Source of the DNA: a virus
Taxonomy: Duplodnaviria; Heunggongvirae; Uroviricota; Caudoviricetes
IMG/VR virus record: IMGVR_UViG_2700989509_000013
Length of the DNA stretch: 9,417 nt
Direction: 5' to 3' (one strand)
Shown piece by piece: positions 1,210-9,417 of the stretch; the first letter of the stretch is position 1, and the number at the start of each line of letters is the position of its first letter. Made by a program: the position numbers and the translations under genes. Below the pieces are notes generated by a model. The model did no database searches. It was not told the DNA's origin and saw only the letters and a program-made list of their open reading frames with translations.

Positions 1210-1225
1210 GGGAAAATAAGTGTAG

Positions 1226-1299
1226 CGCGTTGTACTGGAGTCGAACCAGTGACCGATTGCTTAGAAGGCAATTGCTCTGTCCTGCTGAGCTAACAACGC
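1226..1299 (-). tRNA. tRNA-Arg (anticodon UCU)
   Basis: Clean cloverleaf on the minus strand: acceptor GCGTTGT/ACAACGC, D-arm GCTC/GAGC, anticodon stem ATTGC/GCAAT with loop CTTCTAA, T-arm ACTGG-TTCGACT-CCAGT. CCA not encoded. Confidence 0.9.
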
Positions 1300-1312
1300 A
1301 GAATACCGATAA

Positions 1313-1388
1313 TGGACCACCACCGGGGACTCGAACCTCGCACACTCAACTTAAAGGGTTGACGCTCTTTCCTGATGGCTAGTGGCGG
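1313..1388 (-). tRNA. tRNA-like gene, structurally degenerate (possible pseudo-tRNA; anticodon loop CCUUUAA would read UUU)
   Basis: Acceptor CCGCCAC/GTGGTGG pairs (one G-U) and CCA is encoded; anticodon stem TCAAC/GTTGA is perfect. D-stem has only 2 pairs (GCCA vs GAGC), T-stem has an A-C mismatch, position 33 is C not U, discriminator is U. Confidence 0.45.
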
Positions 1389-1389
1389 T

Positions 1390-1465
1390 TGGTGGCCCTT
1401 GCTGGATTTGAACCAGCGACCTGGCGATTATGAGTCGCTCGCTCTCACCACTGAGCTAAAGGGCC
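1390..1465 (-). tRNA. tRNA with anticodon CAU (Ile2/Met type, ileX/ileZ-like), CCA encoded
   Basis: GGCCCTTTAGCTCAGTGGTGAGAGCGAGCGACTCATAATCGCCAGGTCGCTGGTTCAAATCCAGCAAGGGCCACCA: 7-bp acceptor, GCTC/GAGC D-stem, loop CTCATAA, T-arm GCTGG-TTCAAAT-CCAGC. Closely resembles remembered E. coli ileX. Confidence 0.9.
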
Positions 1466-1660: not shown

Positions 1661-2350
1661 TCAATCTACTTTTGCAACACTTTGCTTTGAAAATGCCGCC
1701 TTTTGTTTTGAACGTGTTCTCATTACAAACAATAAAGCCTCACTATCCAGTCGGTGAAAAATGTGTTTCATTGCAACCCAGTGACGAGTAAATGTTTTGG
1801 ACCAGTTTTTAGTTGTCACTCCCGCCAGTAATGCCAGCTCCTGATATTCATAACCTTCCCCACCAAAAAGTTCTGCTTTTACTGCCTGCGCCGCCAGCCA
1901 GATTAATTTTTTCAGGCGTTCCTGCGTTTTCCCAGCAATTTTTCTGGTACCGGATTGAGTATTAAATTCATTCCACGCCCACTGTGTTATCGCGATCTGA
2001 TATTCCCAACAAATACTCCCGCTGTAACACCACAACAACCAGGCTTTATGATGTTCTTCAAGAGACAGAACAGCCCGCCGCCACGATGATGTCGAAAACT
2101 CAACCGGACTGACCAGAGGAATTGACGTCACCTTCGCCAGCGATTGCTTTCCCGGGATTGGTGGATTATCCCGCGTTATCATTTTTCCAGTCACTTCATC
2201 GCGGTACCGGATTTTTTTTCGCCTGTAACGCCCTGTATCGAACATGGCATTCTCCTGCCAGGCTTCAAGCTGACCTTTTGTTGCCCCACTCAAATCAGCG
2301 GTGGCGATAATGAGCTGCTCACGCACAAACTGTAAATAGTGGTTATTCAT
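1661..2350 (-). CDS. Putative late antiterminator Q-like protein (229 aa from ATG 2350)
   Basis: Intact ORF directly downstream of rusA with ATGA stop/start overlap at 2347-2350, followed by terminator and tRNAs as in lambdoid Q regions. Assignment rests mainly on synteny; family not confirmed by motif. Track start at 2356 is GTG. Confidence 0.5.
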   Translation of the reverse strand: MNNHYLQFVREQLIIATADLSGATKGQLEAWQENAMFDTGRYRRKKIRYRDEVTGKMITRDNPPIPGKQSLAKVTSIPLVSPVEFSTSSWRRAVLSLEEHHKAWLLWCYSGSICWEYQIAITQWAWNEFNTQSGTRKIAGKTQERLKKLIWLAAQAVKAELFGGEGYEYQELALLAGVTTKNWSKTFTRHWVAMKHIFHRLDSEALLFVMRTRSKQKAAFSKQSVAKVD

Positions 2351-2712
2351 GCGCACTCCAGTTCTGTGATTTTTATCCCCAGCCGCCCACCAGGAACGAG
2401 CTGACCGCGCACAATATTGATTTCATCAAACTGCTCGTCGTCTATGAGAAGTCCGGCATGCGTCAGCACATCCAGTGGTGCTTTCAGGATATTGTCCAGG
2501 TCACGACGGCGCTTATCCGGTGGCTCTGCAATAATCTTTATCACCAGCCTTCCGGACAGGTTTAATTTCAGCCGCTGCTGGCGAACAATTAGCGCCACAT
2601 CACGGCGATAACGCTTTCCGGCTTCCGAGATGAAATACGTATTGCCATGACGTCGCCAGTAGGTATTCACCGTCGGCGGGTAAGGCAAAACAAATTCTAT
2701 CCGTTCAGTCAT
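2347..2712 (-). CDS. rusA: Crossover junction endodeoxyribonuclease RusA (Holliday junction resolvase)
   Basis: 121-aa product MTERIEFVLPYPPTVNTYWRRHG…DKRRRDLDNILKAPLDVLTHAGLLIDDEQ… matches remembered RusA (acidic catalytic motif, size). ATG at 2712 abuts the DUF968 stop at 2713-2715. Confidence 0.9.
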   Translation of the reverse strand: MTERIEFVLPYPPTVNTYWRRHGNTYFISEAGKRYRRDVALIVRQQRLKLNLSGRLVIKIIAEPPDKRRRDLDNILKAPLDVLTHAGLLIDDEQFDEINIVRGQLVPGGRLGIKITELECA

Positions 2713-4496: not shown

Positions 4497-4652
4497 TTAC
4501 TCCTCAGGTTCGTAAACTGTGAAGACAGCGACCTCCGTCTGGCCGGTTCGGATTCGTACCTCGCAGAGGTCTTTCCTCGTTACCAGTGCCGTCACTATGA
4601 CGGTTAAACAGATGACGATCAGGGCGATTAACATCGCCTTTTGCTGCTTCAT
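4497..4652 (-). CDS. hok: Hok-family type I toxin (HokD/RelF-like), 51 aa
   Basis: MKQQKAMLIALIVICLTVIVTALVTRKDLCEVRIRTGQTEVAVFTVYEPEE is a near-exact match to remembered HokD. ATG at 4650-4652 with AAGGAG 9 nt upstream; an in-frame upstream ATG at 4709 gives the 70-aa track ORF. Confidence 0.9.
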   Translation of the reverse strand: MKQQKAMLIALIVICLTVIVTALVTRKDLCEVRIRTGQTEVAVFTVYEPEE

Positions 4653-4830
4653 AGCCTGCTTCTCCTTGCCTTTCGGCACGTAAGAGGCTAACCTACATTT
4701 GTGAGACATAGATTGGGCCTCAGATTAATGTTAAGCGTCTTGCAGGACGCCGAATGTTAACTGGGGCTTTTCTCTATCTGCCTTTGGTGTTCATGCCTGA
4801 GACAGATAGCCTCAAGCACCCGCAGCCATT
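4653..4830 (-). promoter_or_regulatory. hok mRNA leader region (expected site of mok-like overlap, fold-back elements and antisense Sok-like RNA; not resolved)
   Basis: Position relative to hok plus inverted repeat CTATCTG/CAGATAG at about 4769-4808. Sok promoter could not be pinned down by eye. Confidence 0.3.
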
Positions 4831-7882: not shown

Positions 7883-8308
7883 TCAATGCACAGCCACAAT
7901 ATTTCCTGCAGGGCCACCTCGATTTATCTGGTTGAAACCAGCGATCGCCACTGCGACAAAATCATCAGCGTCTCTCACCAGTCGCTCCCGCGTCTCCACC
8001 AGCTCCCGAAAATAAGCTGAACTGTGGCTGCGCATTCTGGCCACCAGCAAAGGTGGCATTGCCTTTTCGATCGCTGGTAACAGCGCCTGAATTTTTTTAA
8101 CCGCATCAGGAGTATCTTTCTCCACCCAGCGGAAAATTTTCTGAGTATTGCGAGCCAGGGCTTCCGGATGGCTGTCGTCATACAGTTCAGGAAACGTCAT
8201 ACCCAACTCAAAATAAGCCTGGGTTATTCCAGCTGCTGGAACTTTTTCGCCATCAGGACGCGCCCAGGCATTCATCGCCATGCGGATGTGTTCATGCTTG
8301 ATTTTCAT
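7883..8308 (-). CDS. YdaT-like prophage regulatory protein
   Basis: 141-aa product begins MKIKHEHI…, matching the remembered N-terminus of Rac prophage YdaT. ATG at 8306-8308, GGAG 8 nt upstream; overlaps the cro-like gene end by 17 nt. Confidence 0.7.
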   Translation of the reverse strand: MKIKHEHIRMAMNAWARPDGEKVPAAGITQAYFELGMTFPELYDDSHPEALARNTQKIFRWVEKDTPDAVKKIQALLPAIEKAMPPLLVARMRSHSSAYFRELVETRERLVRDADDFVAVAIAGFNQINRGGPAGNIVAVH

Positions 8309-8567
8309 GAATCAACTCCGGTGTATTTGGTGTGTTAGCCTTATCTCCAGCAGGCAACCCGTCAGTTGGATTCGGGTATAAATCTGGTCGCAATTCATGA
8401 GGAGTAACCCCAGTTGCAATATAAATTTGACGAACCCGTTCTCCCGTCGGCACTCGACCATTGTATTCATTTGCCCATTTGTGTATTTGAGATGGCCAAG
8501 CCCCTATTGCACGCCCTAGCGGACGAATACCACCAGCAATCTTTATTGCTTTGTCCAATGCTGTCAT
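8292..8567 (-). CDS. Cro-like HTH regulator of the YdaS/DicC family
   Basis: 91-aa product with …LGRAIGAWPSQIHKWANEYNGRVPTGERVRQIYIATGVTPHELRPDLY…, the YdaS/DicC-type pattern (…HELRPD). ATG 8565-8567 with GGAGG 4-5 nt upstream; divergent from the repressor gene. Confidence 0.75.
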   Translation of the reverse strand: MTALDKAIKIAGGIRPLGRAIGAWPSQIHKWANEYNGRVPTGERVRQIYIATGVTPHELRPDLYPNPTDGLPAGDKANTPNTPELIHENQA

Positions 8568-8595
8568 ACAACCTCCAGTTCAACTAACCACAACG

Positions 8596-8624
8596 ATTGT
8601 TCACTTAAAACGAACATAAGTCAA
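8596..8624 (-). promoter_or_regulatory. PR-like promoter with overlapping operator (drives cro-like operon)
   Basis: Minus strand: -35 TTGACT (plus 8619-8624), 17-bp spacer, -10 AACAAT (plus 8596-8601). Spacer and -10 contain the inverted repeat TTGTTC-N9-GAACA (plus 8597-8617). Confidence 0.5.
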
Positions 8625-8636
8625 CACCTCGAGGAA

Positions 8637-8664
8637 TTGTTAGTGTTCACTGAACGGTTATAAT
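8637..8664 (+). promoter_or_regulatory. PRM-like promoter for the repressor gene, giving a leaderless mRNA
   Basis: -35 TTGTTA (8637-8642), 16-bp spacer, perfect -10 TATAAT (8659-8664), 6 nt before the ATG at 8671 with no Shine-Dalgarno. Spacer carries the GTTCAcTGAAC palindrome (8645-8655). Confidence 0.5.
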
Positions 8665-8670
8665 TGCCAA

Positions 8671-9060
8671 ATGGACATGAGAAAAAAGCAATACGACACC
8701 CCGCTAGCAGAAAGGTTAGATACGATCTCTCAACAGCATCATTTAAGTGGTTCAGATTTAGCGCGTATCGCTGGTGTAGGTCGTTCATCAGTCAACGCAT
8801 GGAAAAAAAGAGGAACAATCAGTAAAGATTCCGCAGCCAAAATTGCAGAAGCCACAAACGTTTCCCTTTCTTGGCTACTGACAGGGAAAGAAGAGACAAA
8901 TAGAGAGGCGCTTGATGATGACGAGAAGGCCCTGCTTGATGTTTACAGAAACCTGCCACCTGTAGAACGTAGAAATATGCTGGCAGCTTTTCAAATGCGA
9001 CTCCAAAAACTGACCGAATTTTACTCAGAATACGTCGACCCAATAACACGACAAAAATAA
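8671..9060 (+). CDS. DicA/CI-like phage repressor (XRE-family HTH, no peptidase domain)
   Basis: 129-aa product with N-terminal HTH (…LSGSDLARIAGVGRSSVNAWKKRGTIS…) and C-terminal helical region …LLDVYRNLPPVERRNMLAAFQMRL… resembling remembered DicA. Divergent from the cro-like gene. Confidence 0.8.
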   Translation: MDMRKKQYDTPLAERLDTISQQHHLSGSDLARIAGVGRSSVNAWKKRGTISKDSAAKIAEATNVSLSWLLTGKEETNREALDDDEKALLDVYRNLPPVERRNMLAAFQMRLQKLTEFYSEYVDPITRQK

Positions 9061-9081
9061 TTCTTTATTTTACAGAATCAT

Positions 9082-9112
9082 ACCGCCACAAGGCGGTTTT
9101 TTTTTGTTTTTT
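9082..9112 (+). terminator. Rho-independent terminator after the repressor gene
   Basis: Hairpin CCGCC-ACAA-GGCGG (9083-9096) followed by T9, G, T6. Confidence 0.6.
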
Positions 9113-9126
9113 ACGTATTCATCATG

Positions 9127-9155
9127 TTGACTTTTGTTCACCTAGAGAGAACAAT
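9127..9155 (+). promoter_or_regulatory. PL-like promoter with overlapping operator
   Basis: -35 TTGACT (9127-9132), 17-bp spacer, -10 AACAAT (9150-9155); perfect inverted repeat TTGTTC-N9-GAACAA at 9134-9154. Same design as the PR-like promoter. Confidence 0.45.
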
Positions 9156-9233
9156 GTATTCCATCAAAGCACAACGGTGCGACAGGTCTTAGTTCCGCTA
9201 CCCCGGCGTTAAGGGGAAACAGAGGATTTCTCA

Positions 9234-9417
9234 GTGGGCGAAGTCAAACATCAGAATGGAAGGCATCAAGGGATCAGCAAAGAAACAGCGATGGCGCTTT
9301 ATATTGACATCAGCGCCATTGCCGGACAGGTAAGAGTTATCAGAGCGGTAACTAAGCGGTATGCGCCTTTACTTCAGAAAGTCTCTGGTGAGTGCACCGA
9401 AGATATTGTCAACGATT
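9234..9417 (+). CDS. Partial ORF of the PL-like operon (5' end only; start uncertain, GTG 9234 or ATG 9290)
   Basis: Open to the window edge: (V)GEVKHQNGRHQGISKETAMALYIDISAIAGQVRVIRAVTKRYAPLLQKVSGECTEDIVND. AGAGGA lies 7 nt upstream of the GTG. No family recognised. Confidence 0.25.
   Translation, partial: MGEVKHQNGRHQGISKETAMALYIDISAIAGQVRVIRAVTKRYAPLLQKVSGECTEDIVND

Follow-up and report, generated by a model that had tools for sequence, protein, structure and literature searches.

Within the 9,417-nucleotide stretch of viral DNA analyzed here (the window), two divergent open reading frames, one for a repressor and one for a Cro-like protein of the YdaS family, are separated by a 103-bp intergenic region (Table 1). 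Scanning positions 8200-9417 for consensus promoters returned exactly three sites. Two of them, a PR-like promoter oriented toward the cro-like gene and a promoter oriented toward the repressor gene (PRM-like; TTGTTA-N16-TATAAT), lie inside the intergenic region. The third, PL-like, points away from the repressor gene. Behind the repressor stop codon (9060) comes first an intrinsic terminator, which sets the repressor transcript apart from PL, and then the PL-like promoter itself; no toxin-antitoxin pair is found at this place. The terminator stem is conserved in relatives, with variation in the loop and at apical stem positions. On the other side, the cro-like gene is preceded by a GGAGG ribosome-binding site 7 nt before its ATG.

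The order of parts (cro-like gene, PR, PRM, repressor, terminator, PL) is identical in relatives, in which the PL-like promoter stands at the head of the "left" operon ydfA-dicF-dicB-kil-recE (DUF1391-dicB-kil-recE). A sequence-only reading of the window had proposed that the two promoters flank the repressor gene as OR and OL flank cI of phage lambda; the order of reading frames and promoters fits this proposal, in the window as in its relatives. Very likely, this region of a lambdoid Escherichia coli prophage, of the Qin / CP-933P type, serves as its immunity (lysis/lysogeny) switch.

Table 1. Position and main characteristics of the features of the immunity region.
Feature	Position	Strand	Characteristics
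YdaT (CII-like)	7883..8308	-	141 aa; Pfam PF06254, 39.1 bits
Cro-like protein, YdaS family	8292..8567	-	91 aa; first gene of the PR-like operon; Pfam PF15943, 39 bits
YdaT box	8298..8315		TTGATT-N6-AATCAA, exact; ydaT start codon within the spacer
PR-like promoter	8596..8624	-	-35 TTGACT (8624-8619), 17-bp spacer, -10 AACAAT (8601-8596)
Operator O_R (candidate)	8598..8616		TGTTCAC-TTAAA-ACGAACA; 19-bp 7-5-7 inverted repeat in the PR spacer
Repressor (PRM-like) promoter	8637..8664	+	TTGTTA-N16-TATAAT
Third operator (candidate, weak)	8644..8662		TGTTCAC-TGAAC-GGTTATA in PRM, positioned as at PR and PL
Repressor	8671..9060	+	129 aa; N-terminal five-helix helix-turn-helix domain and C-terminal helical hairpin (83-121)
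Intrinsic terminator	9082..9105	+	ACCGCC-ACAA-GGCGGT (9082-9097) and T run
PL-like promoter	9127..9155	+	-35 TTGACT (9127-9132), 17-bp spacer, -10 AACAAT (9150-9155)
Operator O_L (candidate)	9135..9153		TGTTCAC-CTAGA-GAGAACA; layout and position as O_R

One inverted repeat in both early promoters

The PR-like promoter, predicted to drive the cro-like gene, ydaT and the replication genes, shares its whole design with the PL-like promoter. The sequence-only reading had described the same hexamers at the same spacing in both, with an inverted repeat TTGTTC-N9-GAACA inside each; all of these elements were recovered exactly, the repeat at 8597-8616 and 9134-9153. The motif TTGACT-N17-AACAAT occurs twice with 0 mismatches, against 0.04 occurrences expected, and none of 200 shuffled sequences contained two. 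Allowing up to one mismatch, the core TGTTC-N9-GAACA is found in the 9.4-kb window only at O_R and O_L (0.23 expected). The motif search that had been suggested was also extended to the 49 kb surrounding an E. coli prophage of 99% identity, where the two operators are the only exact sites; thus, neither the window nor, for exact copies, this larger segment holds a further operator. A literature search with the operator strings, covering 8 million papers, gave no relevant match.

The operator consensus for the two promoters is TGTTCAC-N5-GNGAACA. On the PR strand, the PR -10 begins with the final 4 nt of O_R; this hexamer matches the -10 consensus at 4 of 6 positions. The PR and PL copies agree at the -35, in both half-sites and at the -10, and differ in both flanks and in the central 5 nt (TTTAA vs CTAGA, promoter strands); as judged from these sequences, they are not a recent duplication.

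One full palindrome per promoter is recognizable at PR and PL. The tripartite arrangement, with three sites each at OR and OL, was not found: OR consists of a palindrome and a half-conserved site, and OL of one palindrome. Nor was an OR2-like site found between the two OR sites. A palindrome located midway between them, CCTCGAGG (8627-8634), was considered and rejected, being unlike the half-site and varying freely among close relatives (CTACGAGG, CCCTGAGG and others). A second OL site lying over the -35, as in the immunity classes L047-L051, was likewise discarded, since the equivalent stretch in the window's class agrees at no more than 3-4 of 7 positions in each half. Upstream of the PL -35, a conserved TTCA(C/T) is present at 9119-9123, at a position different from that of the -35-overlapping site of L047-L051.

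A third, half-conserved site in the repressor promoter

Between the end of the PRM-like -10 and the ATG (8671) lie 6 nt, and no Shine-Dalgarno sequence is present. With so short a gap and no ribosome-binding site, the repressor mRNA is probably leaderless. A comparable distance, 5-8 nt and mostly 6-7, separates the -10 from the ATG in the immunity classes in which a -10 could be called.

The spacer of this promoter carries a perfect left half-site (TGTTCAC, 8644-8650), followed by a right half-site whose second role as TATAAT makes it degenerate. Having one good half-site, the third site is expected to be weak and is probably OR3-like. The sequence GTGTTCACTG in PRM is unchanged across 17 relatives, and most other immunity classes have their own class-specific operator-like repeat at the same PRM position. 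The sequence-only reading had noticed a different element here, a half-site pair GTTCAcTGAAC. The string is indeed present (8646-8656), yet relatives do not keep its right arm: TGAAC is changed to TGAGA or TGCGA in L046 and L004, which belong to the same operator class and keep TGTTCAC. The pair was thus rejected as a functional unit.

A short repressor devoid of a peptidase domain

Pfam searches assigned the repressor to helix-turn-helix families only (PF07022 Phage_CI_repr, 47.9 bits with a cut-off of 22, and HTH_3) and found no S24 peptidase domain. The attributes of lambda CI / LexA-type self-cleavage (S24 domain, Ala-Gly site, Ser/Lys dyad) are missing from the 129-aa sequence. The protein has instead the build of short non-cleavable repressors of ~125-160 aa, with a CI/Cro-type helix-turn-helix and a short helical C-terminal part. 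The recognition helix spans approximately residues 38-47 (RSSVNAWKKR). An AlphaFold2 model (pLDDT 81.5) places a helical hairpin after the helix-turn-helix domain, and the modeled fold resembles SinR, the best match, which has the same two-part build, as well as the N-terminal domains of the 434 and P22 repressors. In a pairwise comparison, DicA of E. coli K-12 aligned at 25% identity along 110 residues, the C-terminal part among them (E=3e-6). The repressor belongs with DicA, PaaR2 and GfoR-GtgR, a placement made by sequence comparison for DicA and by description for PaaR2 and the Gifsy proteins. Among named phages, the nearest homologues are in unannotated Klebsiella phages (60%) and in mEp237 and SEN34 (~42%).

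On the Cro side, the YdaS-family protein is similar to the solved all-alpha Cro proteins 5w8y and 3bd1. It is followed by a YdaT-family protein, so that the locus has the YdaS-YdaT early-right module. YdaT matches PDB entry 3c4r (E=2e-88) and the YdaT of CP-933P (8bt1; E=2.7e-77); though unrelated to lambda CII, it is predicted from sequence to be its functional equivalent. The proteins of CP-933P (PMC9986795) and of Rac (PMC11879457) have both been footprinted on the motif of the YdaT box, at the same place.

Conservation and co-variation of the candidate operators

The class to which the window belongs comprises 17 distinct sequences, with repressor identities of 77-100%. The PR -35 and -10 region is unchanged in all 17. 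Within the class, the TGTTC/GAACA arms and the promoter hexamers are almost invariant, and the operator center and flanks vary, the center in 6-8 of the 17 relatives. Around 12 related immunity types have a 19-bp 7-5-7 inverted repeat at the same position in their PR-like and PL-like promoters, overlapping the start of the -10 by 4 nt. The half-sites differ between these classes, the operator being specific to the immunity type. A prophage's own PR and PL match at 11.8 of 14 half-site positions, as compared to 8.1 of 14 between classes, a value not reached in any of 20,000 label permutations; the result also holds for the 8 inner positions outside the -10. What the analysis shows directly is that these features are present, that they occur non-randomly, that their position is kept and that they co-vary with the repressor/Cro module.

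Across the ~12 classes the half-site changes together with the helix-turn-helix of the repressor and with that of Cro. In the repressor, V-G-RSSVNAW pairs with TGTTCAC and V-S-RSSVN(A/G)W with TGTTAGC. The position of the site has an exception in classes L047-L051, where the PL spacer has a degenerate site or one of a different type, and where a better site lies over the -35. The operator-in-spacer design is thus not universal.

The wider search for the full pattern, in 2.9 million viral contigs, yielded 32 stretches, 26 of which lie beside this repressor. Twenty-one of these 26 are divergent pairs ~530 bp apart; in the window, O_R and O_L are separated by 537 bp. The other six stretches are single chance matches in unrelated contigs; the four examined sit inside unrelated open reading frames. 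The immunity type was found in at least 72 of 5,426 complete E. coli genomes at 93-99% identity, O157:H7 strains included, and the repressor protein on more than 1,000 contigs.

Relationship to known switches

A duplicated operator-in-promoter design is real at this locus, yet ordinary, having precedents in phage lambda and in the Qin and CP-933P prophages. As in lambda, PR and PL flank the repressor gene and are overlapped by sites of a single sequence family, and a further site, predicted here to be weaker, lies in the repressor promoter, ~46 bp from the PR site in the window. The distance from OR1 to OR3 in lambda is ~47 bp. A further likeness is the arrangement of terminator and promoters around the repressor gene, and the leaderless repressor mRNA of lambda would have its counterpart in the one predicted here. 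The two systems differ in the repressor, which here counts 129 aa and has neither S24 peptidase domain nor cleavage site; in the number of operators per promoter, three in lambda against one recognizable full operator here; and in the role of CII, which would fall to YdaT. Qin and CP-933P too are described with three or more operators, as opposed to the one full palindrome per promoter seen here.

The immunity region of CP-933P in E. coli O157:H7, with PaaR2, YdaS and YdaT (PMC8630535, PMC9986795), resembles the present one in the divergent arrangement of a short helix-turn-helix repressor and a YdaS-type Cro (97 bp apart there, 103 bp here). Its paaR2 mRNA was found experimentally to be leaderless (PMC8630535), a property that we predict here from spacing. 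PaaR2 and YdaS leave footprints over PR/PRM in that prophage, and its PL has a -35 and -10 identical to those of PR933P along with similar operators (PMC8630535); in the window, PL likewise lies beyond the repressor operon and repeats the PR hexamers and operator. YdaT is nearly identical, and the YdaT box at the ydaS/ydaT junction is identical. In contrast, the half-site consensus of CP-933P is GTTTAGTAA, in four 18-bp palindromes, and its repressor is followed by paaA2-parE2 toxin-antitoxin cargo where the window has the terminator directly.

Qin (PMC3441716, PMC10448788) shares the gene order and, with relatives of the window, a downstream operon of ydfA/DUF1391, dicF and dicB. Its repressor DicA (135 aa) also combines a helix-turn-helix with a short C-terminal helical part and no cleavage site. 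DicA binds Oc, TTGTTAGTCATAACTAACAA, in vivo (PMC3441716); Oc has the outer TTGTT...AACAA in common with O_R and O_L, and the dicBp operator is again placed between -35 and -10. The differences lie in the low identity of DicA (25%), in the inner half-site (TTGTTAG vs TTGTTCA here) with an arm spacing one base longer here, and in the DicC-YdfX-YdfW genes that stand in place of the YdaS-type Cro and YdaT. Finally, the Gifsy-type repressors GfoR, GfhR and GtgR of Salmonella, which are inactivated by antirepressors, have been grouped with DicA and RacR, with homologues noted in most E. coli genomes (PMC3121763). Compared by description, these proteins of ~130-150 aa, essentially a CI-like N-terminal domain, resemble the 129-aa repressor; antirepressors are known for them, whereas neither an antirepressor gene nor a LexA box was found in the window.

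Discussion

The lambda-like reading is supported in that every prediction it makes at the sequence level was borne out. Because repressor and Cro both co-vary with the operator, co-variation cannot tell which of them is the binder. It might be that the inverted repeats serve mainly or only the Cro-like YdaS and that the 129-aa protein recognizes something else, or works chiefly through the half-site of PRM. The helix-turn-helix of Cro follows the operator class as does that of the repressor, and in CP-933P the YdaS and PaaR2 footprints overlap, with exact recognition sequences left unassigned by the authors (PMC8630535). Nonetheless, the two proteins share operators in every lambdoid switch studied, and DicA, only 25% identical to the repressor, binds the homologous palindrome in vivo (PMC3441716). 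Moreover, a lysogen must silence PR and PL through its repressor, and these promoters hold no other shared repeats. We find use mainly or only by YdaS distinctly unlikely.

The likeness of PR and PL could also stem from shared ancestry or recombination, with the palindrome carried along as a passenger devoid of regulatory role. Lambdoid genomes are indeed mosaic, a breakpoint lies ~65 bp downstream of PL, and in L049 a PL with the window-type half-site coexists with an OR of another type. Against this, the arms are the same in copies that differ in the center of the repeat and in both flanks, and they stay almost fixed as neighboring positions drift; furthermore, the arrangement recurs with other arms in ~12 classes and tracks the DNA-binding helices. 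A passenger origin thus appears highly improbable. Scarcely credible is the idea that a host regulator binds the repeat, or that the palindrome arose by chance in AT-rich promoter DNA. Six single matches to the full pattern did arise by chance in unrelated viral contigs, but the paired divergent arrangement occurs only around this repressor gene (21 of 21 pairs), a host-factor site would not vary with the phage immunity type, and the sequence is no LexA box.

Taking the repressor as the protein that binds the repeats, we infer from sequence how binding, repression, a leaderless start, autoregulation and induction may work in this switch. The 129-aa repressor, probably a dimer or higher oligomer formed via its C-terminal hairpin, would bind the 19-bp TGTTCAC-N5-GNGAACA between the -35 and -10 of both early promoters. 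Each operator shares its outer 4 nt with the start of the -10 hexamer, so that repressor bound there should keep RNA polymerase off the two promoters simultaneously. Occupancy of O_R would turn the PR-like promoter off, silencing YdaS (Cro-like), YdaT (CII-like) and the replication genes, and occupancy of O_L would turn off the PL-like promoter. At PRM, the promoter-proximal half-site would have been given over to a consensus TATAAT, leaving one good half-site; such a weak site may be filled only at high repressor levels, or preferentially by the Cro-like protein, and its occupancy would exert negative control on repressor synthesis. YdaT acting on its box would probably promote establishment-type transcription toward the repressor gene.

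Given that the repressor has no S24 peptidase domain, induction probably occurs through an antirepressor rather than through RecA-stimulated cleavage. No LexA box and no antirepressor gene were identified in the window or in 49 kb of related prophage, and the induction route is for this reason drawn purely by analogy. The Gifsy system offers a plausible model for it.

Two further readings, both unlikely in our judgment, may be mentioned. One regards the repressor family as a naturally occurring "specificity series" built on one fixed scaffold. Because the outer TGTT/AACA of the operator doubles as the -10 it would be locked, and immunity specificity would then evolve only at inner half-site positions 4-7. 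The N-cap residue of the recognition helix, position 37, is Gly in all three TGTTCAC lineages and Ser in every other class, those of the TGTTAGC type included, and this one position may decide which operator is recognized. In the other reading, the PL leader would act in cis on the early-left transcript, as an element not described before, and could for example affect elongation, stability or processing. The PL-like promoter is homologous to Qin dicBp, transcribed leader included, and ~60 nt from the predicted PL transcription start (9162-9219) are conserved across immunity classes and dicBp in surroundings that are mosaic. RNAalifold returned only a 4-bp hairpin in the leader, with no covariation, and an Rfam search of 9050-9417 gave chance-level matches only.

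The locus leaves the concept of the immunity switch unchanged, its design being the textbook lambdoid one. What appears new, on the sequence comparisons made here, is the operator specificity within the DicA / PaaR2 / Gifsy class of short non-cleavable repressors. The ~12 operators paired with helix-turn-helix sequences on one scaffold make a small but useful data set on the evolution of repressor specificity, and the operator sequences, now defined, can be used for building reporters. The immunity type is common in E. coli, and in relatives the switch controls prophage operons with the cell-division inhibitors dicB, dicF and kil. Together, the sequence TGTTCAC-N5-GNGAACA and its three positions may serve to predict superinfection immunity, as well as cross-talk between the many lambdoid prophages that reside together in pathogenic E. 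coli.

Matching promoters with predicted operators flank a repressor gene without peptidase domain

A consensus promoter scan over positions 8200-9417 yielded exactly three promoter-like sites. Two of them share the form TTGACT-N17-AACAAT (against 0.04 expected) and carry the inverted repeat TTGTTC-N9-GAACA in the spacer without mismatch; no further copy of the TGTTC-N9-GAACA core was found in the window with up to one mismatch allowed. The sequence-only reading, which had described two identical promoters containing this repeat on either side of the repressor gene, is thus accurate to the base. The copies at the PR-like promoter (driving the cro-like gene) and at the PL-like promoter (directed away from the repressor gene) are alike in the −35 motif, both arms and the −10 motif, and unlike in the central five bases and both flanks. 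Such a pattern is better explained by constrained arms than by a recent duplication.

Features of the window, with positions and strands
Feature	Position	Strand	Remarks
STnc100 sRNA homologue; tRNA cluster (Arg-TCT, Lys-TTT, Met-CAT)	280-452 and 1225-1465	-	STnc100, 100.8 bits; three tRNAs
231-aa ORF	1661-2356		where the related EC12 prophage has its annotated antitermination gene
hok/sok-type toxin-antitoxin locus	4497-4821	-	Rfam sok, 116.9 bits, at 4647-4821
Hok-like ORF, 70 aa	4497-4709	-	in hok/sok-type locus
Cro-like ORF, 91 aa	8292-8567	-	divergent, left flank of repressor ORF
YdaT box TTGATT-N6-AATCAA, TTGATTTTCATGAATCAA	8298-8315		exact match; ydaT start codon (CAT on + strand) in spacer
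PR-like promoter TTGACT-N17-AACAAT	8624..8596	-	consensus scan
Palindrome CCTCGAGG	8627-8634		perfect; midway between PR and PRM operators
Repressor promoter (PRM) TTGTTA-N16-TATAAT	8637-8664	+	consensus scan
Third predicted operator TGTTCAC-TGAAC-GGTTATA	8644-8662		read in the family's layout
Repressor ORF, 129 aa	8671-9060	+	within region 8568-9155
Codon of repressor residue 37	8779-8781		recognition-helix N-cap
Weaker YdaT-box-like repeat TTTATTTTACAGAATCAT	9064-9081		2 mismatches; directly after repressor stop, before terminator
Intrinsic terminator	9082-9097 plus T run		right flank of repressor ORF
PL-like promoter TTGACT-N17-AACAAT	9127-9155	+	consensus scan
PL leader, ~60 nt	9156-9219		CATCAAAGCACAACGGTGCGACAGGT...GTTCCGC...CCCCGGCGTTAAGGGG; from predicted PL start

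A Pfam search of the 129-aa protein gave matches to Phage_CI_repr (PF07022, 47.9 bits) and HTH_3 and detected no peptidase domain in it, excluding membership of the self-cleaving CI/LexA family. An AlphaFold2 model (pLDDT 81.5) comprises a five-helix helix-turn-helix domain (residues 11-71, recognition helix ~38-47) and a C-terminal helical hairpin (83-121). Among solved structures its top match is SinR, likewise built from two such parts; the 434 and P22 repressors follow with their N-terminal domains. The divergent 91-aa ORF encodes a YdaS-family protein similar to all-alpha Cro proteins of solved structure. Next comes the gene for a YdaT that is almost identical to PDB 3c4r and highly similar to CP-933P YdaT (PDB 8bt1), followed by genes for a replisome organiser and a DUF977 protein. 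DNA spanning 8200-9219 occurs at 93-99% identity in at least 72 complete E. coli genomes, O157:H7 strains among them, where the right-hand promoter heads a DUF1391(ydfA)-dicB-kil-recE operon laid out like dicBp of the K-12 Qin prophage. This homology and operon structure identify the window as a lambdoid prophage immunity region of the kind seen in Qin, Rac and CP-933P.

Elsewhere in the window, the STnc100 homologue and tRNA cluster lie downstream of the 231-aa ORF, a placement typical of lambdoid and Stx-type prophages. A hok/sok-type locus is also present.

Predicted operator half-sites co-vary with the repressor and the Cro-like protein

Repressor homologues of 26-100% identity were collected with their flanking DNA, and the PR-strand and PL-strand sequences of each were examined. 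The classes comprised that of the window (its own lineage, L046 and L004), L047-51, L054, L058, L063, L060/61, L079, L006 and L011. Lelliottia, Raoultella, Erwinia and Serratia are among the named hosts of the genome-derived loci, and there are further records of homologous proteins from Salmonella, Klebsiella, Enterobacter and Cronobacter. One layout is common to every class examined: a −35 motif, ~2 nt, a 7-nt half-site, 5 nt and a second half-site of 7 nt, its final four bases doubling as the first four of the −10 motif. Read in this way, the window operator appears best written as TGTTCAC-N5-GNGAACA (19 bp). Other classes have TGTTAGC, TGTTGCC, TGTCAGG, (A/T)TTTAGC, TTAAGC or ATAAAC. PR and PL sites of the same prophage match at a mean of 11.8 of 14 half-site positions, as against 8.1 of 14 between classes; none of 20,000 label permutations reached the observed match sum, and the agreement also holds over the eight inner positions outside the −10 motif.

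The type of half-site changes in step with the helix-turn-helix sequence in the repressor and in the Cro-like protein alike: V-G-RSSVNAW occurs in all three TGTTCAC lineages and V-S-RSSVN(A/G)W in the TGTTAGC classes. Residue 37 of the repressor is Gly in the three TGTTCAC lineages and Ser in all other classes compared, TGTTAGC ones included, and is a candidate specificity determinant.

Across the 17 distinct sequences of the window class, arms and hexamers hardly vary; 6-8 of the sequences have a different operator centre, and drift is seen in the flanks. Some prophages that are otherwise almost the same carry natural variants of the operator: in L022 the right arm of the PL operator reads GAGAGCAAT, a change affecting both the GAAC arm and the PL −10, and in L024 and L041 the first arm base is changed from T to C. 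A reverse scan of 2.9 million viral contigs with TTGAC-N3-TGTTC-N9-GAACAAT returned 32 stretches. Twenty-six directly adjoin a window-class repressor gene, 21 of these being divergent pairs ~530 bp apart. The remaining six are single matches without a repressor homologue; of these, four, representing two distinct sequences, were examined and fall inside unrelated coding sequences.

The repeat might be a palindrome arisen by chance, or the product of a duplication devoid of function; co-variation, within-class conservation and the contig scan rule out both, nor can a binding site for a host factor explain these same observations. Together, the PR-PL match, the helix co-variation and the repressor-adjoining matches support, with one correction, the earlier proposal that the repeats are operators.

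A predicted third site in the repressor promoter

The half-site pair GTTCAcTGAAC had also been noted in the repressor promoter. Its left half-site stands: GTGTTCACTG is invariant there. The right arm does not, reading TGAGA or TGCGA in L046 and L004, which belong to the same operator class. In the family's layout, a canonical half-site begins 1 nt past the PRM −35 and its partner is degenerate because it overlaps TATAAT. Most other classes have their class-specific repeat at the identical position, suggesting three uses of the design instead of two, with the third copy apparently weakened to allow a consensus −10. The centres of this copy and of the PR operator are 46 bp apart; no conserved middle site between them was found among the close relatives compared. 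The CCTCGAGG palindrome varies freely in these relatives and is thus probably fortuitous.

TATAAT ends 6 nt before the repressor ATG (8671), the corresponding gap being 5-8 nt, mostly 6-7, in classes with a called −10, and a Shine-Dalgarno sequence is lacking upstream of both nearby ATGs at the repressor start. From these features a leaderless repressor mRNA is predicted, like the one demonstrated by experiment for paaR2 and the one known for lambda cI (PMC8630535). The first 18 bases past the repressor stop are conserved in close relatives.

A conserved leader and mosaic PL regions

Conservation of the PL leader extends across immunity classes and to Qin dicBp, despite differing promoters, operators and downstream genes; the leader recurs at L099:1930-2000 and after PL in L004, L046, L047, L050, L058, L060 and L063. 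It is immediately followed by a mosaic breakpoint at ~9219. The leader had no Rfam match, and RNAalifold gave just a 4-bp hairpin with no covariation. In L047-L051, PL has an extra operator-like repeat, TGATAGC-N5-GTTGACA, over the −35 and a degenerate spacer site; L049 combines a window-type TGTTCAC half-site in PL with an OR of TGTTAG type. This suggests recombination between heteroimmune PL regions.

Model and related systems

Since the spacer and part of the −10 lie within each operator, repressor bound at both in a lysogen would block RNA polymerase at both early promoters. The weak PRM site may mediate negative feedback at high repressor concentration or be a preferred Cro target. YdaT would aid establishment; a box of identical motif and position, serving a PRE-like promoter, was footprinted in CP-933P and Rac (PMC9986795, PMC11879457). 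As the repressor has no S24 domain, induction probably proceeds through an antirepressor, as shown for DicA/Rem and the Gifsy repressors (PMC10448788, PMC3121763).

The closest systems are CP-933P (PaaR2/YdaS/YdaT) and Qin (DicA/DicC/dicBp). In CP-933P, PL933P is reported to have −35 and −10 motifs identical to those of PR933P and similar operators, paralleling the matching pair of the window. The experimentally bound Qin operator Oc, TTGTTAGTCATAACTAACAA, shares the outer TTGTT...AACAA, and the similarity of DicA to the window repressor spans both domains, at 25% identity. The tripartite operators of lambda, in contrast, have no counterpart here. The window operator sequence was not found in the literature searched, nor a close repressor homologue among the named phages searched. 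The switch is of an ordinary, already understood kind, and its repressor and operator, judged by sequence, represent a new specificity within the class of short non-cleavable repressors. It is of value because it provides a defined operator for an immunity type widespread among E. coli prophages, together with a tidy series of co-variation.
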